A stretch of DNA of 64,000 nucleotides from assembly GCA_031409775.1 (NCBI GenBank), contig JANNXY010000042.1:165-64164 (forward strand), read 5' to 3'. Source of the stretch: a bacterium (GTDB lineage Bacteria; Patescibacteriota; Minisyncoccia; Phycocordibacterales; CAIZIN01). Of the stretch, positions 4,970-16,559 are shown one piece after another. Positions within the stretch are counted from its first letter, which is position 1, and every line of letters starts with the position of its first letter. The translations under genes and the position numbers were made by a program. The notes under the pieces were generated by a model, which made no database searches, was not told the origin of the DNA, and saw only the letters and a program-made list of their open reading frames with translations.

Positions 4970-5545
4970 CTAACATATATCCCGAAGGATACCAAAATCC
5001 TTTACCAAAGTATCTTTCAATTTCTGATTATAGATTGCGGCTGCGGGGTGGTAGAGCGGGATGATTTTTACTTTACCCCATTTAGAATCTGCGAGATATG
5101 ACTTGCCATGTGCAGCGGAAATTGGCTCGATCTCATAACTCAAGCCAAATTTATCCATAATATAATTCATAGAATAACGACCGAGAGTGGCGATGACTTT
5201 CGGCTTGATTATTTCTAATTCCTGATCTAGATGTGGTCCGTACAATCTGATTTCCTCGGGAGTTGGATCGCGGTTCTCTGGCGGGCGGTCGTTTACGATA
5301 TTGGTGATGTAGATATCATCTCGGCTTAGGTTTACCGACTCGAGCAATCCATCTAGAATCTTCCCTGCTGCACCACAGAAAGGTTTGCCAGATTTGGCCT
5401 CATTGCGGCCTGGAGCCTCCCCTACGAACACGATCTCAGCTGTGTGACTTCCCTCACCTACCACAGGTAAGTAGCCGTTTTCGGTGCGATATTTGTAGAG
5501 GGGTAGCTTTGTATTATTTATGAGTTCTTTGTAAATAGAGTCCAT
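4970..5545 (-). CDS. uracil-DNA glycosylase superfamily protein (family-4-like)
   Basis: 191 aa; GEAPG motif (motif A of family 4/5 UDGs) and a C-terminal HPAA motif (YHPAAAIY). Only two Cys residues, so probably no Fe-S cluster. A TATAAT box lies 6 nt upstream of the ATG, suggesting a leaderless transcript. Confidence 0.7.
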   Translation of the reverse strand: MDSIYKELINNTKLPLYKYRTENGYLPVVGEGSHTAEIVFVGEAPGRNEAKSGKPFCGAAGKILDGLLESVNLSRDDIYITNIVNDRPPENRDPTPEEIRLYGPHLDQELEIIKPKVIATLGRYSMNYIMDKFGLSYEIEPISAAHGKSYLADSKWGKVKIIPLYHPAAAIYNQKLKDTLVKDFGILRDIC

Positions 5546-5840: not shown

Positions 5841-6284
5841 TTGCTCACAGGTCGTTGGGCTAGTTCCCTCGCTGTAGTCTGGATATCGTATGAGGCTTTC
5901 AATGCTTTGCTTATTATACCACACTATGATAATGTGCAAGCAGAAAAACATCGACTTATGCACCATAATACATTATTCCACTTTGGTGAAGCTGCAATTT
6001 CACATGCAGAATTATGTGCTGAAACACTTCTCAATGCCGATCCAGATAAAATGCTTCACAGTTTGGATAAGGATGGTTTCTACTACATGCTCTATGGAGA
6101 TGAACTTAAGTATTTGATAATCTTTAGCAGATTCTTTGATCCTGAAGCGAATTTTGTTACGCTGCGCGGTTGCCCTACTGGTCCTGGGAGACAAGCTGGT
6201 AGGGACGAGATAATGAGACATATTGGGTCAGCAAAGAGATTTGCTACGGAGGTACTGGAAAGATGCAAAGAGCTCAGAGCCTAG
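5841..6284 (+). CDS. hypothetical protein (uncertain ORF)
   Basis: 147 aa ORF with no recognisable motifs. It overlaps conflicting ORFs on both strands, so the coding status is unresolved. Confidence 0.25.
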   Translation: MLTGRWASSLAVVWISYEAFNALLIIPHYDNVQAEKHRLMHHNTLFHFGEAAISHAELCAETLLNADPDKMLHSLDKDGFYYMLYGDELKYLIIFSRFFDPEANFVTLRGCPTGPGRQAGRDEIMRHIGSAKRFATEVLERCKELRA

Positions 6285-6296
6285 AACAGGTTCTTT

Positions 6297-6566
6297 TTAA
6301 TTTATCGCACCTTCTTTGCGTAGTAATTCCTTCTTACTCTTGCCCTGCAAGCCATTGTACTCACCAATTTTGCCATCGCTTCGGATCACGCGGTGACAGG
6401 GCACAGATTTATCAGCATTTGCTGCCATGATAGTCCCTACTGCCCGAGATGCTCCGGGACTACCGGCCTTGGTAGCGACACCCTTGTAGGTCATGGTCAT
6501 CCCCTTTGGAATTTTCTTTACTATGCTTAAAACTTTTTCTTTAAATTTATTTTTTGCTTCTTTCAT
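6297..6566 (-). CDS. MGMT-family methylated-DNA--protein-cysteine methyltransferase DNA-binding domain protein
   Basis: 89 aa; PCHRV active-site motif (VPCHRVIRSDGKIGEY) typical of the Ogt/Ada C-terminal domain. Confidence 0.7.
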   Translation of the reverse strand: MKEAKNKFKEKVLSIVKKIPKGMTMTYKGVATKAGSPGASRAVGTIMAANADKSVPCHRVIRSDGKIGEYNGLQGKSKKELLRKEGAIN

Positions 6567-6576
6567 TTATATATAT

Positions 6577-7413
6577 TTAGCATCCACAGAGATCCTTGAT
6601 GTCTTGCATAATCTGATCCTTCTTCTCTAGAAGCGACGGCATAGCGTGCAATATATCCTCGCGATCTTTGAGCGTGACACAGTCCACAATCTTCTGGGAA
6701 ATTATATACTGCTTCTCTGCTGTGGTAAGTGACGGCAGACATGTCACGGGGTGAATACCTGTCTCGATGATCATGTCATGCAGGTGACCCTTGGCTGGAT
6801 AGTTCCACCCGATCATGTTCACACCAGCGCAGGTGCCGTATTGGATGGCCTTCTCTGTAAATTTAGTATTGGTGATAAGCAATCCATCTGTCATCTGCTT
6901 CTGTCCATCAGGAGTTGTAACTTGTACATTGCGCAAGTCGTCGAAACGGGATTTGATATATAGAGCGACCTTGAGGTCGGATTTGGCACCCAGCTCGCTA
7001 TGGAATTTCACCTCGCCTAGGATAAGTGTCTGATCATTCCATGCCACTACATCTACCTCGTGATCAACGCACGTACCTTGGATAATTCTGCCAGTTTCTA
7101 CATTGTAACCCTTCTTGCGCAGTATTGCTGCGACGAACTGCTCGAATGGGAATCCCGTAGGACCGAACTCTGCGATAGATCGGCGGAGCGAGTAACGGAG
7201 TGCGGGAGTCCTACCAACCTTGTCATGGAGCAAGTCAAATGCTCTACGGTAAATAACATTGGTAGTTACAGGCTCTTTGATCCAAGCAGAAATTTCTTCC
7301 GATATTTCCTTTGCTGTTATAACAGATGCACCGGCTCGCTCTAGCGAGCTGCGTAGCTTCTGTGCGTCGAATTCTTCTTCGGTTCCGTCGGTTTTGAGTA
7401 TCAGGGGTTTCAT
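6577..7413 (-). CDS. ATP-cone domain protein fused to a PD-(D/E)xK (Mrr-like) restriction-endonuclease-fold domain
   Basis: The N-terminal ~90 aa resembles an ATP-cone (MKPLILKTDGTEEEFDAQKL...). The central region carries a D...EVK nuclease motif (CVDHEVDVVAWNDQTLILGEVKFH). It lies 10 nt upstream of the MGMT-like gene. Confidence 0.55.
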   Translation of the reverse strand: MKPLILKTDGTEEEFDAQKLRSSLERAGASVITAKEISEEISAWIKEPVTTNVIYRRAFDLLHDKVGRTPALRYSLRRSIAEFGPTGFPFEQFVAAILRKKGYNVETGRIIQGTCVDHEVDVVAWNDQTLILGEVKFHSELGAKSDLKVALYIKSRFDDLRNVQVTTPDGQKQMTDGLLITNTKFTEKAIQYGTCAGVNMIGWNYPAKGHLHDMIIETGIHPVTCLPSLTTAEKQYIISQKIVDCVTLKDREDILHAMPSLLEKKDQIMQDIKDLCGC

Positions 7414-7424
7414 TGGGGGATTTG

Positions 7425-7904
7425 CTAGCCTTTGATATCGATCTCTACTTCATCTATATTCTTGTCTGCTGGTACCTCAAACAGATTCAGCTGGATTGGC
7501 TTGCTATTCATTAAACCCTGAATTGACATAGGGTTTCCACCGGTTGTTTCTACTTTGAATTTCCTGTTGGTGATAACTTGGCTGCAAATTTCTTCTTCGT
7601 TTCTAGATGTATCCAGTGTGATAGTTGCAGATGTCTCGGTGTCTTTGGATATTGCAGAGACTAGGCTATAGCAAGGTGTAGGGAGATCGAGTGATCCAGC
7701 GTATATATGCTTGCCGTCTTTGTATTGATGCTTCACATTGATCACAGATACATAGTAGTCGCTGCCTGGGATAGGTAGGTTGTCTACTACGTCGTTCTTG
7801 TTCCAGTTCATCGCAGAATATACTCCCGCCACTAGAAGTATTATGACCAGTAGTACTGCAATAATCTTGCCCATATTATTTGAATTTTGCATATTTTCGT
7901 CCAT
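7425..7904 (-). CDS. membrane-anchored hypothetical protein
   Basis: 159 aa; N-terminal hydrophobic anchor (IIAVLLVIILLVAGVY) followed by a soluble domain; no homology recognised. Confidence 0.4.
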   Translation of the reverse strand: MDENMQNSNNMGKIIAVLLVIILLVAGVYSAMNWNKNDVVDNLPIPGSDYYVSVINVKHQYKDGKHIYAGSLDLPTPCYSLVSAISKDTETSATITLDTSRNEEEICSQVITNRKFKVETTGGNPMSIQGLMNSKPIQLNLFEVPADKNIDEVEIDIKG

Positions 7905-7919
7905 ATAGTTTATATTAGT

Positions 7920-8996
7920 TTATAACAAATCTATTATACCACCACCTACACATTCCTCGCCATCATATATAACTAGCGACTGGCCAGAAGCGATGGTAGC
8001 TGGAAATCCTGATTTGCTATTTGCTTTCCAAATATTTCCATGATTTTCTAAATCAATTTCGATCAATTCTCCGTGATATCTGTACTGTGCAGTTAGATTG
8101 TGATTACTTGTCCACTTTTCTTTGTCTAGAATATTTACTTTGGATAAATTAATAATATGGTCTGTGTGATTTTCGTTAGACTGCTTGGTTCCCACTGTAA
8201 TAGTATTGTTATCGATATTTTTACTTAGTACATAAAGTGGTTTGTCATTATCTGTCTTCGCCTGTATCGTGAATCCATGTCGCTCTCCAATACTATAGAA
8301 AAACGCTCCGTCGTGGTATCCTATCACTTCGCCTTTAGTATTTAGAACATCTCCCCTTTTTTCCTTTATAAAGTTCTTTAGAAAATCTTTCATGTTTAAT
8401 TTACCTAGAAAGCACAATCCCTGACTATCCTTCTTGTCACTTGTAAATAATTTGAATTTCTTTGCGAGTTTTCTCACTTCGGCTTTCTCGAGCCCACCTA
8501 TCGGGAACTGGATATTATTTAAATCTTCTTTCTTTATTCCATACAAGAAATACGATTGCTCTTTGGCCTTGTCTTTGCTCTTGAACAATCTACCATTTAT
8601 CACCTGAGCATAGTGGCCTGTCGCTACATAGTTTGCACCGTTGGCCATCGCCCAATTATAAAATACGCCGAATTTCACATGAGTATTGCACATCACATCT
8701 GGGTTCGGGATTCTACCTACGCGGTATTCTGCGATCATATAGTCCACAACCTCTTTCTTGTACGCTTCCACAGCATCGCAATCTCGGAAAGGTATGCCGA
8801 GCTGTGCACAGATTCGCATCGCGTCTCTCCTATCGTCACGGCTCGTGCATTCCATAAATGGTGGCTGCCAGACGTTGATAAACACTCCAGTCACATCGTA
8901 TCCAGCATCTACTAGCATCGCTGCCGCCACCGACGAGTCTACCCCGCCCGATATGCCTACAAAAACTTTTTTACCTTTTCCATTTTCAACTTTCAT
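7920..8996 (-). CDS. mnmA: tRNA-specific 2-thiouridylase MnmA
   Basis: PP-loop SGGVDSS (VGISGGVDSSVAA) and overall MnmA architecture, 358 aa. Confidence 0.9.
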   Translation of the reverse strand: MKVENGKGKKVFVGISGGVDSSVAAAMLVDAGYDVTGVFINVWQPPFMECTSRDDRRDAMRICAQLGIPFRDCDAVEAYKKEVVDYMIAEYRVGRIPNPDVMCNTHVKFGVFYNWAMANGANYVATGHYAQVINGRLFKSKDKAKEQSYFLYGIKKEDLNNIQFPIGGLEKAEVRKLAKKFKLFTSDKKDSQGLCFLGKLNMKDFLKNFIKEKRGDVLNTKGEVIGYHDGAFFYSIGERHGFTIQAKTDNDKPLYVLSKNIDNNTITVGTKQSNENHTDHIINLSKVNILDKEKWTSNHNLTAQYRYHGELIEIDLENHGNIWKANSKSGFPATIASGQSLVIYDGEECVGGGIIDLL

Positions 8997-9003
8997 TTTA
9001 ACT

Positions 9004-10362
9004 TTAGTAATTATCTCGCAAGAAGCGAATCATTTCGCGGCTGTCGGCGTAGACGTCTTCAGAATTAAGTAAGATCACGACAATTGGACGTTTCTCACCC
9101 TGGACAGTTTCCTCATAGACTCCTATATATGTTTCCCCTGCTGCTGTGGTCTTGCCTATTTTACCCCCTAGAAAAGTACTATTTAAACCCGGAACGGTGT
9201 TGAAATTCTGCAGATCTGAATACAGAGGATCCCCATAGACACTCGTCGTGACTCGGCCAGCACTCAGGTTGAATACAAATCTGCGATTATTGAGAACGTA
9301 TTTAGCGAGAGCGTATAGATCCTGCGCAGATGATACATTGCCATCACCTCCACCATAGGGGTCGACGAATCTGGTGTCCTTCATATTGATAGCCTGAGCT
9401 TTCTTGTTCATGAGACCCACGAAATAGTTCTTGCCCATACTGTCGGCTATCACATTGGCGGCCTCGTTCGATGACTCCATGAGTAATGGAAATAATAGGT
9501 CATAGACGGTTATAACCTGACCCGACTTGAGCCGAGGTTTAGAAGTGGTCGCCATCGAGTAATCATTTACCGTGAGGTTCTTCTCTATGTGGATATACTC
9601 AGTTGCAACTAGAGCTGTCATTATCTTGGTAATAGAAGCAACAGGGACCTGGTCACTTATACCCTGACTAGCCAGTATCGTATCGTTCTTCAGATCTGCT
9701 AATAAGTATTTCTCTGCTGTGACATGGGGCGTCTGACCGATATATTTAAATGAATCATTCTGCACATCTGACTCGTATACAATTACAGGCATACCGACTT
9801 TGGTTAGGTTGTACACGATCTCTGCATCTGCTGTAGATAGTCGTATACATCCACCAGAATAAGTCGAAGAAACCTCTGTACCATCCTCATAATACGGCCA
9901 TCCATGTATAAAGAAGTTGCCCTGGAATATCATACTCCATGGCTGGTATACATGTCCGATCGAGGATAAGTGATTCTTTTTCTTGGCTTCTATTTTATAA
10001 ATACCTGCAGGGGTTTCCCACCATGAGCCCTCTTTACCTTTGGATTTTATCTCGATTTCTTTGTTCAATTCTCCATCTATATATATGCGAAGTTTCATGG
10101 CTGTGAGGTCTGCTTCTACGAAGCTTTTCTTGTCTACCGTCAGAGAATTCTTGACCCTGCTAAAGTAGTTGATATCCGACATAGCAGCTGTAGAGCCATA
10201 GATAAAATCATTATCGTTCAATTTATCTGGCTCGGGGAAATTGTAGCCTTCTAGCGGGTTCTGGTACAAGAATCCCGCAACACCTATTACGATAATCAAT
10301 ATACCGGTTATGACCCCTCCCCATACTTTCTTATTACTTTTTTTTGAATTATTTGTTTCCAT
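9004..10362 (-). CDS. bifunctional L,D-transpeptidase (YkuD) / D-alanyl-D-alanine carboxypeptidase (peptidase S11) fusion protein
   Basis: N-terminal TM anchor. YkuD catalytic motif HGW...SGGCIRL. C-terminal PBP5-like motifs in order: SITK (SxxK), SSNEAANV (SxN) and GKIGKTT (KTG-like). Confidence 0.7.
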   Translation of the reverse strand: METNNSKKSNKKVWGGVITGILIIVIGVAGFLYQNPLEGYNFPEPDKLNDNDFIYGSTAAMSDINYFSRVKNSLTVDKKSFVEADLTAMKLRIYIDGELNKEIEIKSKGKEGSWWETPAGIYKIEAKKKNHLSSIGHVYQPWSMIFQGNFFIHGWPYYEDGTEVSSTYSGGCIRLSTADAEIVYNLTKVGMPVIVYESDVQNDSFKYIGQTPHVTAEKYLLADLKNDTILASQGISDQVPVASITKIMTALVATEYIHIEKNLTVNDYSMATTSKPRLKSGQVITVYDLLFPLLMESSNEAANVIADSMGKNYFVGLMNKKAQAINMKDTRFVDPYGGGDGNVSSAQDLYALAKYVLNNRRFVFNLSAGRVTTSVYGDPLYSDLQNFNTVPGLNSTFLGGKIGKTTAAGETYIGVYEETVQGEKRPIVVILLNSEDVYADSREMIRFLRDNY

Positions 10363-10363
10363 A

Positions 10364-11329
10364 CTAGTCTTTTATATATTTAGATTTGTTTATATTGTGT
10401 TCATCGAGTGATTTGGCATAGTACATTTTCCCGTCGTCACCTGTTAGGAAATATAAATAAGGTGTATCGATAGGCGTAACTGTATCCCTGATTGACTCGA
10501 TCCCTGGATTAGATATCGGACTAGGAGGAAGGCCTTTGTATTTATAAGTATTATACGGTGAGTCCAGCTTCAGATCTGCCACAGTGAGCTCCGCACTGGT
10601 TTTATTGTTGATAAACCTAAACGTCGCATCGACCTGTAGTGGCATTCCGATCTCTAGCCTCTTCCACAATATACCCGCTACTATTCTGCGACTTTCTTTG
10701 TCATTGGCCTCTTCTTCTACTATAGAAGCCATAGTGATAATGTCCGAGAGTGGTTTGTTGAATGCACCTATTTCTTGGCTGACTTCCTTTATTCTAGTTT
10801 CGAATGTCGTTGTGAGCTTGTCTATAACAAGCGGTGTAGTGGCGAGTGGCATGAACAAATACGTATCCGGGAACAAGTAACCCTCTTTGTCCTCTGCTTT
10901 CTCTACGAATGCCTCTGCGTCGAACCCGATGAGGTTGTCTGCTAGTATCTCCGACATTTCCCTAGAACTTATTCCTTCTGGAAGAGTAATCTTCCTCGGT
11001 ATGAATCCGTAGATACCCCTACTAATACGTTTGGCAACTCCGTATACACTGAGTGGCTTCTCGAACAAATAACTACCAGCCTGTACATGTGTCTCGCTAC
11101 CTGTGAGTACTATTGCCAAATGCAGCATGGTCGGAGATCTGACTAGGCCCTGGTTCGCGAGGTGCTTGGCAATACTGTACGATCCTCTATCTGCTGGGAT
11201 TTCAACTATTGTATCAGATTCAAATGTAGGCGGTGCGAAGAAATAGTATGAAAAAACACAAATTAAAACTAGCCCTAGGATTCCAGAAATTATGATTTTG
11301 TACTTGTGGGCTTGGAACATCATATACAT
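10364..11329 (-). CDS. mltG: endolytic murein transglycosylase MltG (YceG family)
   Basis: 321 aa with an N-terminal TM and a YceG-like domain. Its start overlaps the stop of the upstream gene by 1 nt. Confidence 0.8.
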   Translation of the reverse strand: MYMMFQAHKYKIIISGILGLVLICVFSYYFFAPPTFESDTIVEIPADRGSYSIAKHLANQGLVRSPTMLHLAIVLTGSETHVQAGSYLFEKPLSVYGVAKRISRGIYGFIPRKITLPEGISSREMSEILADNLIGFDAEAFVEKAEDKEGYLFPDTYLFMPLATTPLVIDKLTTTFETRIKEVSQEIGAFNKPLSDIITMASIVEEEANDKESRRIVAGILWKRLEIGMPLQVDATFRFINNKTSAELTVADLKLDSPYNTYKYKGLPPSPISNPGIESIRDTVTPIDTPYLYFLTGDDGKMYYAKSLDEHNINKSKYIKD

Positions 11330-13715: not shown

Positions 13716-16559
13716 TCAATTTCCGTCAACTACAATACTGACTAGCCTGCCAGGGACGTATATTTCCTTCTTTATTACCCTCCCGGCGATCCACTTATCC
13801 ACAGCTGGTAGGGCTCTAGTAAGCTCAATAACATCTTTCTGTGTCGCTTCCCTGCTTACTTCTAGTTCAGCCCTAACCTTGCCATTTACCTGTATCGCAA
13901 TCTTTATAGTATCTGAAACAAGCTTGGATGCATCGTATGAGGGCCAGTTTGCCTTGTGGACAGAGGATTTGTGGCCTATCTGGCTCCAGAGCTCTTCGGT
14001 TACATGTGGGGCAAATGGGGCAAGTAGCTGGAGCACGGTCTCGTAGACTTTATTATTTACGCTTTCTTCTTTCTCTAGTCTATTTAAGAGGATCATAAGT
14101 GTAGAGATGGCGGTGTTGAACGACATTTTCTCTATATCTTCGCTTACTTTCTTTATACTTTGATTAAGTAGAATTTCTACGTCAGAGGGAGTTTTAATCT
14201 TCTTGTCCAATTTCTCTGCTAGCTTCCAAACGCGTTCCACGAACCTACGTGAGCCAACTACACTATCTGAACTCCATGCAACAGGTTGGTCAAATGGACC
14301 CATGAACATTTCAAATACACGGAGACTATCTGCTCCATAGATCTTTACCAAGTCATCCGGATTAACAACATTACCCTTTGATTTGGACATTTTTTCTCCG
14401 CCTTCAGCAAGTATTAGCCCGTGGGAGGTTCTCTTAGCGTATGGTTCAATCGTAGGAACTTCTCCGATATCATAGAGAAATTTGTGCCAGAATCGAGAAT
14501 ACAAAAGATGCAGCGTAGTATGCTCCATGCCGCCGTTGTACCAGTCCACTGGGGTCCATTTATCAAGCTTATTCTTGTCAGCGAAAGATTTTTTATTCTT
14601 TGGGTCTATATATCGCAAATAATACCAAGAAGATCCAGCCCAGTTGGGCATTGTATCTGTTTCCCTTTCAGCATCGCCCTTACACTTCGGGCATTGGACG
14701 TTGACCCATTTGGAAATAGTTGATAGCGGGGACTCTCCGTTGTCAGTGGGCTCATAATGCTTTACTTTGGGCAATACGACCGGCAAATCCTTCTCTGGTA
14801 CAGGTACCCAACCACAATCATTACAATTTATCATTGGAATTGGCTCTCCCCAATATCGCTGGCGAGAGAAGACCCAGTCTTTCAATTTATACTTTACGAC
14901 CTTACGGCCGAATTCATTTGTAATTTTTCCTTTTGCTTCATTTGCAGTTAGTCCATCAAACTCGCCTGAGTTGATTACAATTCCATCGCCTGTGTAAGGA
15001 GGGAAATATTCTGAACTCATGCGTTCGAGCCAGAACTTGAGCTCTGAGTTTACCATTTTGCCTACAACGAATTCCTGAGGGGAAACCCACAATATTTCAT
15101 TGGTTTCTTCTTCACCAGCAGCTATTTCAGTTCTATCGTTTCCAATAAGTTCGAAATACGCAGCGGTCGTGATGGCCACTCTGTTTTCATCTTTGTGTTT
15201 AGCAAAGTAAGAAGCTTGCACCGGTCCCCCGAGAGTTTTTATAAATTTCAAATTTGTGTAGCCAGTTTCCTCTATAACTTCGCGGACAGCAGCTTGTTCT
15301 GCGCTTTCATTTTCTTCTATCCCACCTATCACCACGGTATCCCATCCAAATTTACTATTGCGGATAATCAAGTATTTATCTTGGTTCGGATCGTACACTA
15401 TCGCATGTGCATTCTTCCTTACTTTAGAGGACTTGTCTGACCTCGGAGGATTCACATGGTCTACAACCGAAGGCATGATTACGTCTCTTATTTCCAAATC
15501 GTATTTCTTTGCGAATTTAAAGTCACGTTCATCGTGAGCTGGCACTGCCATTACTGCACCTGTTCCATAATTAACCAGAACATAGTCTGCTATCCAAATC
15601 GGAATTTCTTCCCCTGTTGCAGGGTTTATGGCTACTACGCCTTTTACTTCCACCCCAGTCTTTTCCTTGGTAGCATCAGTTCTGTCTATCTCGGTTTTGT
15701 CTTTTGATTTTTTTATATAATCCTCTACTTCCTTTTTATTTTCTATTGGGAGTTCAGCTATCAGCCTGTGTTCTGGTGCTAGCACGATATAGGTTACGCC
15801 ATATAGTGTGTCGGCACGAGTGGTAAATACTGTGATTTTCTCAGAACTGTCCTTGATCTGGAAATCAATCTCCGCACCTTCACTCCTACCAATCCAATTG
15901 CGTTGCTGGATCTTTATCTTTTCAAGGAAATCTACAGTGTCCAAATCTTTGTCCAATCTGTCTGCGTATTTGGTGATAGCAAGCATCCATTGATCCTTGT
16001 CCCTCTTTTCTACTGCAGTTCCACATCGTTCACATTTACCATCTACTACCTCTTCGTTGGCGAGGCCGATTTTATCTTTGGGACACCAATTTATATTCAT
16101 TTTGGATTTGTAAGCCAAACCTTTCTCAAACATCTTTAGAAATATCCACTGTGTCCATTTATAGTATTCGGGATCAGTTGTATTGACCTCTCGTGACCAG
16201 TCAAAGGAAGCTCCTAAGTTTTTAATTTGTTTTCTGAAATTACCTGTATTTTGCTTAGTAACAAACGCGGGCTGTTTACCAGTTTTAATAGCATAGTTTT
16301 CAGTAGGAAGTCCAAATGCATCCCATCCCATGGGATAAAGCACGTTAAACCCTTCTACTCGTCTCTTCCTTGCAATTGCATCCAGGGCAATATATGGCCT
16401 CACATGACCGACATGGAGACCGTCGCCAGACGGAAAAGGAAATTCAACCAGTGCATAGAATTTAGGCTTATCTGTCTTTTCGCTTGTTTTATAAAGCTTC
16501 TTCTCTTCCCACTTCTTCTGCCATTTCTTCTCTATTTTCTTGTGATCATAAGACTTCAT
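13716..16559 (-). CDS. leuS: leucyl-tRNA synthetase with inserted Nudix-fold domain
   Basis: HVGH (HIGH), editing-domain TTRADT and AVPAHDERD motifs, and KMSKSKGN. At 947 aa it is longer than E. coli LeuS because of a ~140 aa insertion containing GGIEENESAEQAAVREVIEETGY, which fits GX5EX7REUXEEXGU. Confidence 0.95.
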   Translation of the reverse strand: MKSYDHKKIEKKWQKKWEEKKLYKTSEKTDKPKFYALVEFPFPSGDGLHVGHVRPYIALDAIARKRRVEGFNVLYPMGWDAFGLPTENYAIKTGKQPAFVTKQNTGNFRKQIKNLGASFDWSREVNTTDPEYYKWTQWIFLKMFEKGLAYKSKMNINWCPKDKIGLANEEVVDGKCERCGTAVEKRDKDQWMLAITKYADRLDKDLDTVDFLEKIKIQQRNWIGRSEGAEIDFQIKDSSEKITVFTTRADTLYGVTYIVLAPEHRLIAELPIENKKEVEDYIKKSKDKTEIDRTDATKEKTGVEVKGVVAINPATGEEIPIWIADYVLVNYGTGAVMAVPAHDERDFKFAKKYDLEIRDVIMPSVVDHVNPPRSDKSSKVRKNAHAIVYDPNQDKYLIIRNSKFGWDTVVIGGIEENESAEQAAVREVIEETGYTNLKFIKTLGGPVQASYFAKHKDENRVAITTAAYFELIGNDRTEIAAGEEETNEILWVSPQEFVVGKMVNSELKFWLERMSSEYFPPYTGDGIVINSGEFDGLTANEAKGKITNEFGRKVVKYKLKDWVFSRQRYWGEPIPMINCNDCGWVPVPEKDLPVVLPKVKHYEPTDNGESPLSTISKWVNVQCPKCKGDAERETDTMPNWAGSSWYYLRYIDPKNKKSFADKNKLDKWTPVDWYNGGMEHTTLHLLYSRFWHKFLYDIGEVPTIEPYAKRTSHGLILAEGGEKMSKSKGNVVNPDDLVKIYGADSLRVFEMFMGPFDQPVAWSSDSVVGSRRFVERVWKLAEKLDKKIKTPSDVEILLNQSIKKVSEDIEKMSFNTAISTLMILLNRLEKEESVNNKVYETVLQLLAPFAPHVTEELWSQIGHKSSVHKANWPSYDASKLVSDTIKIAIQVNGKVRAELEVSREATQKDVIELTRALPAVDKWIAGRVIKKEIYVPGRLVSIVVDGN

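Follow-up and report, generated by a model that had tools for sequence, protein, structure and literature searches.

A conserved fusion of an ATP-cone to a PD-(D/E)xK nuclease, tentatively read as a nucleotide-gated entry to nucleic-acid salvage

ATP-cones are the classic allosteric switch of deoxynucleoside triphosphate (dNTP) supply in ribonucleotide reductases and in NrdR. What would such a domain do at the head of a nuclease? This question is raised by a 64,000-nucleotide stretch of DNA from a Patescibacteria genome (GenBank assembly GCA_031409775.1, contig JANNXY010000042.1, positions 165 to 64,164; hereafter the window), in which a minus-strand open reading frame (ORF) at 6577..7413, its end coordinate including the stop codon, encodes a 278-amino-acid protein. 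An initial annotation of this locus had recognized an ATP-cone fused to a PD-(D/E)xK nuclease, had pointed to an MGMT gene a few nucleotides downstream, and had proposed that the two form either a DNA-damage-responsive nuclease pair or a defence element. Below we describe the domains of the protein, which we regard as firmly established and as much surer than any functional reading, and we argue that it belongs to a widespread family whose members would cut nucleic acids under the control of adenine nucleotides, with MGMT as a local neighbor.

The protein divides into an ATP-cone of residues 1-85 (7159..7413), a PD-(D/E)xK nuclease core of the Mrr_cat type, residues 86-205 (6799..7158), and a C-terminal helical domain of about 70 residues, 206-278 (6580..6798), that is AF1548-like_C or (HhH)2-like, all on the minus strand. 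The cone and the nuclease bear out the earlier domain account, and both match their Pfam profiles above cut-off; the third domain had been missed. Mrr_cat (PF04471) is matched over residues 87-197 at 28.2 bits (cut-off 21). The proposed D...EVK motif falls within the peptide CVDHEVDVVAWNDQTLILGEVKFH (residues 115-138) and is confirmed by the codons in the window, which place D121 at 7051-7053, E134 at 7012-7014 and K136 at 7006-7008. Together with E91, these residues are invariant in 35 Paceibacteria sequences (alignment A1) and again in 21 sequences of three deep branches of the family (alignment A5), and E119 and H138 of the core are conserved too. In an AlphaFold model of the full protein (pLDDT 85, pTM 0.70), the core follows the alpha-beta-beta-beta-alpha-beta order expected of a PD-(D/E)xK fold, and it matches many restriction-fold nucleases structurally. 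Homology to the AF1548-like family (1Y88; PF22357) extends over the nuclease domain and also over the helical C-terminal one. Four cysteines that are invariant in Paceibacteria (C115, C195, C225 and C245) were considered as ligands of an iron-sulfur or zinc cluster; we rejected such a cluster as a family feature because the archaeal-type branch has isoleucine, methionine, leucine or valine in place of C225 and C245, and neither C115 nor C195 is universal.

In the window protein the ATP-cone profile (PF03477) gives a marginal match of 26.3 bits against a cut-off of 25.8, over residues 5-47 only, while homologs score between 31.6 and 37.9 bits over about 80 of the 88 profile positions. A profile built from the N-terminal 85 residues of 20 family members found NrdR ATP-cones as its best PDB matches, aligned end to end with an E-value of 0.005, and the predicted fold comprises the beta-hairpin lid and four-helix bundle that define an ATP-cone. 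In E. coli NrdR, the adenine is covered by K53, E59 and K65, and the floor of the pocket is formed by V51, F61 and L66 (bioRxiv 10.1101/2025.03.28.645925). Upon alignment, these positions correspond to K7, E13 and K19 and to I5, F15 and L20, respectively, of the window protein. K7, G10, E13, F15, K19 and L20 are invariant across 35 Paceibacteria members, position 5 stays hydrophobic in that branch, and all three branches keep K7, G10 and K19 without exception. Judged by these residues, the predicted adenine-nucleotide pocket of the ATP-cone is conserved.

The family to which this protein belongs is large. A search from the window protein found 3,648 proteins at E <= 1e-3, and one from a Bacteroidota member found at least 7,522 at E <= 1e-10 (90% clustering). 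Clustering at 50% identity gives 1,016 clusters, 379 of which score at or below 1e-30. Among the best 150 of the 1,016, nearly all are 265-310 amino acids long and in most the alignment spans nearly all of the query, and we therefore consider the three-domain architecture to be fixed; the cone is joined to a nuclease as a rule of the family. One branch consists of Paceibacteria/Parcubacteria, with at least 599 GTDB species and about 50% identity across the class. A second, archaeal-type branch has TFIIB-encoding neighbors and carries Bathyarchaeia or Nanoarchaeota names, and a third is formed by Bacteroidota (Pontibacter, Adhaeribacter, Sporocytophaga, Flavobacterium, Cyclobacterium and Saprospiraceae) together with Criblamydia of the Chlamydiota. 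Members are named 'ATP cone domain-containing protein', 'restriction endonuclease', 'ATPase' or, in some JGI records, 'Holliday junction resolvase', and a protein identical to the window nuclease is present in public collections. NCBIfam holds no model for the family. Our literature search on the ATP-cone-nuclease fusion and on AF1548 found no paper describing the fusion, and the only relevant one, the 2007 Global Ocean Sampling paper, predicted AF1548 to be a restriction-type nuclease. The family is catalogued but functionally unstudied.

AF1548 of Archaeoglobus fulgidus (PDB 1Y88; Pfam Mrr_cat and AF1548-like_C) is the only solved relative, and unlike the window protein its crystallized chain has no ATP-cone. 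Databases also hold AF1548-like proteins of about 200 amino acids that are without the cone. We rejected the idea that these are stand-alone nucleases, as most of them appear to be start mis-calls: a hidden Markov model of the Paceibacteria N-terminus detects the cone in 76 of 79 full ORFs of the archaeal-type branch (E 1e-16 to 1e-26), and at a Bathyarchaeia locus (L081, 5764..6000) the frame upstream of the annotated methionine is open and encodes a complete cone. The annotated short starts sit at a conserved internal methionine just before LGPxGFPFE. The numbering of AF1548 in PMC1821046 implies annotation from this methionine, and a 76%-identical relative keeps the last cone helix upstream. 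On the strength of these reading frames, AF1548 was probably crystallized without its regulatory domain through a mis-called start codon.

What the family might do in the cell is suggested by its genomic surroundings outside Paceibacteria, for which we examined 80 metagenomic loci of the archaeal-type branch and 11 contexts from other bacteria. At the Bathyarchaeia-type loci L081-83, L085, L086 and L100, the nuclease gene directly follows genes for an IF-2B-type protein, which is ribose-1,5-bisphosphate (R15P)-isomerase-like, and for an AMP/thymidine-phosphorylase-like protein of about 514 amino acids. Elsewhere the nuclease gene stands first in a co-directional four-gene cassette, followed by genes for a beta-CASP metallo-beta-lactamase hydrolase of about 455 amino acids, a thymidine/AMP-phosphorylase-like protein of about 500 and a phosphoribosyl-pyrophosphate-synthetase-like protein of 297. 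This cassette was found at L165 (1972..6597), L166 (7995..12602), L174 (7001..11671), the Cyclobacterium-type contig L169 (7001..11666) and the metagenomic contig L084 (5816..10767). Two of the five, L165 and L166, are plasmid-borne, one on a Pontibacter actiniarum plasmid and one on a Criblamydia sequanensis plasmid. A comparison of three of the cassettes, those of Pontibacter, Criblamydia and L084, gave 50-72% identity per gene across phyla, and the cassette phosphorylase is 40% identical to that of Bathyarchaeia. A further locus, L170, has the nuclease gene followed by that for the beta-CASP hydrolase. The cassettes and most other Bacteroidota copies lie in islands that contain Usp, PFK, 2-hydroxyacid dehydrogenase, GAPDH-like, PPK2 and DeoC genes, as well as P-type ATPases and metal efflux genes, and the Criblamydia flanks include phosphoketolase, glycogen phosphorylase and acetate kinase. 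This setting is one of energy and nucleotide metabolism, not of defence. A keyword search of the literature turned up no paper on the four-gene cassette. Overall, nuclease genes of this family repeatedly adjoin nucleotide-processing enzymes, and they do so in independent lineages.

As the ATP-cone and an intact nuclease are fused throughout the family, a nucleotide-gated nuclease is a reasonable reading of the protein. The family is strongly conserved and is not a mobile defence family. Its representative in this Patescibacteria genome is a core gene present once, and it runs in the direction of mnmA with only short gaps. The function that we favor, and that we hold to be plausible if somewhat short of probable, is that of an adenine-nucleotide-gated, sequence-nonspecific, metal-dependent PD-(D/E)xK endonuclease that feeds nucleotide salvage or catabolism. 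In such an enzyme the (HhH)2-like C-terminal domain would hold the protein on a nucleic-acid backbone, most likely DNA, while the ATP-cone would bind ATP, dATP or both and nucleotide binding would probably move the enzyme between an active and an inactive oligomeric state, by analogy with ribonucleotide reductases and NrdR. In this way nucleic-acid breakdown would be tied to how the adenine (deoxy)nucleotide pool stands. What is degraded, without sequence specificity, could be nucleic acid that is imported, damaged or in surplus. The resulting mononucleotides could be salvaged or catabolized, either by way of nucleotide phosphorolysis and the pentose-bisphosphate route or by recycling of deoxynucleoside monophosphates. 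Candidate Phyla Radiation (CPR) bacteria, DPANN archaea and Bathyarchaeia are known for an AMP-phosphorylase/R15P-isomerase/RuBisCO nucleoside pathway (PMC5113843, PMC6389311), many CPR bacteria have limited biosynthetic capacity (bioRxiv 10.1101/2019.12.18.881540), and Paceibacteria, it is believed, rely on nucleic acids that they scavenge (PMC5113843; bioRxiv 10.1101/2019.12.18.881540). The nucleoside pathway of CPR bacteria and their limited biosynthesis fit a core, gated cytoplasmic nuclease.

Several observations weigh against this gated-salvage function. Within the cone, E13 is not conserved in the Bacteroidota branch, and the outer-site gatekeeper of NrdR, Tyr131, aligns to a lysine or arginine at position 77, so that discrimination between ATP and dATP may differ from that of NrdR. 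The full cassette is present in only 5 of the 11 non-CPR bacterial contexts, and most of the 80 archaeal-type loci have unrelated, lineage-specific housekeeping neighbors, among them DJ-1/PfpI, Glu_synthase-like, thioredoxin-reductase-like, DHH/DHHA1 and HypF proteins. No cassette gene occurs in the 64-kb window or in the flanks of 80 Paceibacteria loci (up to 5 kb on each side), and the link to salvage is therefore extrapolated from branches that are 36-42% identical. The recurrent neighbors in Paceibacteria are of repair type (uracil-DNA glycosylase (UDG), MGMT and a Cas4-like nuclease) and also fit a role in repair. Finally, it is by inference that we speak of ATP or dATP binding, of a direction of regulation and of DNA or RNA as the substrate. 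A broader version of the proposal is more speculative, and we offer it as a possibility: this would be the first case of an ATP-cone effector that acts outside ribonucleotide reduction, an ATP/dATP-switched nuclease serving as the gated entry of nucleic-acid catabolism and salvage, retained as a core gene in CPR bacteria and many archaea and placed in Bacteroidota and Chlamydiota as the lead gene of a horizontally transferred nucleic-acid-to-pentose cassette within stress or energy-starvation islands.

The alternative that survives best, although we think it unlikely, is a DNA-repair endonuclease that works with MGMT, UDG, the Cas4-like nuclease and a MutT-like NUDIX hydrolase, the ATP-cone tying incision to the availability of dNTPs with which repair synthesis could proceed. 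It draws on the gene neighborhoods of the 80 Paceibacteria loci, where the nuclease gene lies within a long co-directional housekeeping block that runs from a sigma-like/HARE-HTH protein through DUF8128, MltG, MnmA, the nuclease and variable small genes to UDG, PepF and alanyl-tRNA synthetase (AlaRS). A UDG gene follows downstream on the same strand in 45 of the 80 loci. A Cas4-like PDDEXK_1 nuclease gene is found downstream in 26, MGMT and MgtC genes in 21 each, a gene for a YfbR-like HD_3 5'-deoxynucleotidase in 11 and PCMT in 9. The 5'-deoxynucleotidase gene comes directly after the nuclease gene in 8 of 76 loci, an adjacency that we count in favor of the link to nucleotide salvage. UDG, MGMT, the Cas4-like nuclease, the YfbR-like enzyme and MutT-like NUDIX proteins form a recurrent downstream theme of DNA and nucleotide-pool maintenance; this looser theme leaves room for the repair side of the earlier proposal of a DNA-damage-responsive nuclease, in which the partnership with MGMT is not supported. 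Against a repair role, these neighbors vary in presence and order, and they lie within a housekeeping block that also holds MgtC, PCMT, PepF and AlaRS. In the 80 archaeal-type loci neither an MGMT nor a UDG gene occurs within 6 kb, nor do they appear in the 11 other bacterial contexts, and synteny within one class can be inherited gene order rather than functional coupling. We took the most conserved upstream neighbor, mnmA, in the same way. In Paceibacteria it stands upstream in the same orientation at 71 of 80 loci and is directly adjacent at 49 of 76, but only 1 of 80 archaeal-type loci and none of the 11 other contexts have it close to the nuclease gene, and a functional link to it was rejected. 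As a separate observation, an MgtC-family gene is found again and again close to the nuclease gene, in lineages far apart: MgtC follows immediately downstream in 12 of 76 Paceibacteria loci, the distance is about 4 kb in Bathyarchaeia (L081-83 and L085), and at L084 the gene is 3 kb upstream.

The MGMT gene itself (6297..6566, minus strand) begins after a 10-nt spacer (6567..6576) that runs from the nuclease stop codon to the MGMT start codon, as had been described. Its 89-amino-acid product matches PF01035 at 93.5 bits over residues 7-87 and TIGR00589 at 73 bits, and it aligns with residues 96-175 of the Ada C-terminal domain (1sfe) through the PCHRV site, which is intact, with the codon for Cys57 at 6396-6398. 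The protein thus shares with Ogt and Ada-C the complete C-terminal DNA_binding_1 domain and its PCHRV cysteine, whereas the Methyltransf_1N domain of classical Ogt and MGMT proteins is absent. In size it is similar to COG3695/ATL-type single-domain proteins; unlike ATLs, it keeps the reactive cysteine. It presumably also retains the tyrosine, the arginine finger, the asparagine and the C-terminal glutamate, by our assumed correspondence to human MGMT numbering, and is plausibly an active, stand-alone alkyltransferase. MGMT also adjoins the nuclease gene in the two closest relatives (L175 and L176, 71-74% identical, with gaps of 47 and 0 nt), one of which additionally has a MutT-like NUDIX gene adjoining, and such adjacency adds to the case for repair. 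Among the 80 Paceibacteria loci, an MGMT gene is immediately downstream in one (L025), and the 21 noted above all have it within 3 kb; it is absent from the vicinity in all 80 archaeal-type loci (6 kb) and in the 11 Bacteroidota, Chlamydiota and related contexts. Based on these counts, we rejected MGMT as a conserved partner beyond the close clade. MGMT behind the nuclease gene is a lineage-local neighbor, an instance of local synteny and not an obligate partner, and nothing ties it mechanistically to the nuclease.

A defence role fares considerably worse, and we rate it as improbable. By this account, which was the other proposal of the initial annotation, the protein would be an Mrr-like, type IV restriction nuclease or an abortive-infection effector fired when phage perturb the ATP/dATP pool; the Mrr_cat match, the two plasmid-borne members and the 'restriction endonuclease' label that some sources attach to members all lend it some color. 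Defence genes, however, are usually patchy and fast-evolving, while in Paceibacteria this gene is conserved, single-copy and syntenic beside mnmA, at the identity across the class given above. PADLOC-DB v2 contains no family-level match (the best, PDC-S02, scores 20.8 bits and covers the nuclease domain only), and neither the IMG/VR viral contigs nor 50,697 phage records (INPHARED/GenBank phages) contained a relative of the nuclease. No methyltransferase, helicase or other defence partner lies nearby, and the two plasmid copies sit in the metabolic cassette. With the PADLOC, IMG/VR and INPHARED searches all negative and a housekeeping context, we rejected a defence function. A further reading, which we rate as just as improbable, takes the protein not for a degradative nuclease but for an NrdR-like regulator that senses nucleotides and binds DNA without catalysis, or for a structure-specific resolvase of the Hjc/RecU kind. 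In its favor, the cone is closest to those of NrdR, Pfam gives weak matches to Hjc, YraN (UPF0102) and NERD, some JGI records carry the resolvase name, and RuvA also has an (HhH)2 domain. Against it, the catalytic residues E...D...ExK do not vary even over very deep divergence, which argues against lost catalysis; the match to the NrdR model TIGR00244 covers residues 3-30 only and reaches 15.4 bits, with the cut-off at 124.65, and no Zn-ribbon is present; the Hjc matches are insignificant (E 0.16-0.18); and Hjc itself is expected to be encoded already by the archaea in which the family occurs.

In the window, the nuclease and MGMT genes are the final two of a tightly packed, co-directional minus-strand run that begins with mltG/yceG (10364..11329) and continues with a gene for a YkuD and Peptidase_S11 fusion (9004..10362), mnmA (7920..8996), which encodes the tRNA 2-thiouridylase (Pfam tRNA_Me_trans, 228.6 bits), and a gene for a 159-amino-acid protein (7425..7904). 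The intergenic gaps downstream of mnmA are 15, 11 and 10 nt, and a promoter and terminator scan mapped no terminator between mnmA and the nuclease gene. The 159-amino-acid protein carries a predicted N-terminal membrane anchor and has no significant Pfam, NCBIfam or PADLOC match; a relative occupies the same position in L175, L176 and 5 of the 80 Paceibacteria loci. The next minus-strand gene, 750 nt beyond MGMT, encodes a uracil-DNA glycosylase of the UDG superfamily (4970..5545; PF03167, 109.9 bits). Between the two lies a 147-amino-acid ORF on the plus strand (5841..6284) that converges on MGMT and ends at a terminator-like plus-strand hairpin (6276..6294) with a T-run after it, the one informative element that the scan gave for the operon. 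Pfam, NCBIfam and PADLOC gave no match for this ORF, the 80 Paceibacteria loci hold no counterpart of it, and it may be a lineage-specific gene or possibly not a gene. The domain make-up of two other proteins of the window was noted apart from the nuclease. In a single chain of 452 amino acids, the product of 9004..10362 joins the domains YkuD (L,D-transpeptidase) and Peptidase_S11 (D-Ala-D-Ala carboxypeptidase). A 947-amino-acid leucyl-tRNA synthetase (13716..16559, minus strand) carries a NUDIX domain (PF00293, 51 bits, residues 381-504) directly after its editing domain, an insertion that is unusual for a tRNA synthetase and that recurs in the related contig L176 (946 amino acids).

The existence of a widespread, conserved fusion of an ATP-cone to a nuclease implies that the degradation of nucleic acids, too, is wired to the adenine (deoxy)nucleotide pool. 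In Paceibacteria, where the gene is near-core, a gated cytoplasmic nuclease would supply a missing piece in the picture of nucleic-acid scavenging and, if the broader version of our proposal is true, would explain how ultrasmall cells that are auxotrophic for nucleotides safely digest acquired DNA or their own nucleic acids. As the family is present in cultured Pontibacter, Sporocytophaga and Flavobacterium, this hypothesis is open to biochemistry, and to genetics where tools exist.

A nuclease gated by an ATP-cone would join two principles that are known separately, ATP-cone allostery and ligand-gated PD-(D/E)xK nucleases. The first is represented by the ATP-cones (PF03477) of NrdR and ribonucleotide reductase, which the N-terminal 85 residues resemble by profile and predicted fold and whose adenine-covering residues they keep. 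The expected logic is the same, in that binding of ATP or dATP would alter oligomeric state and output; the output domain is a Zn-ribbon or a reductase in those proteins and a nuclease here, the tyrosine gatekeeper of the NrdR outer site gives way to lysine or arginine in the nuclease alignment, and no link to nrd genes was seen for the nuclease family. The second principle is represented by Card1/Can2, Cdn1, NucC and Cap4 of type III CRISPR and cyclic-oligonucleotide-based antiphage signalling (CBASS) systems. Those nucleases sense a cyclic oligonucleotide messenger through CARF or SAVED domains in a defence context, whereas the present family would sense a primary metabolite, with ATP or dATP as the presumed ligand, through an ATP-cone in a housekeeping or metabolic context, and the likeness is one of working principle only, not of membership. 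With Mrr and other type IV restriction endonucleases (PF04471) the window nuclease shares the family of its catalytic domain, above the Pfam cut-off. Compared with these enzymes, it has no N-terminal domain for the recognition of modified DNA, its distribution is not patchy or island-like, and at family level it is absent from catalogues of defence systems.

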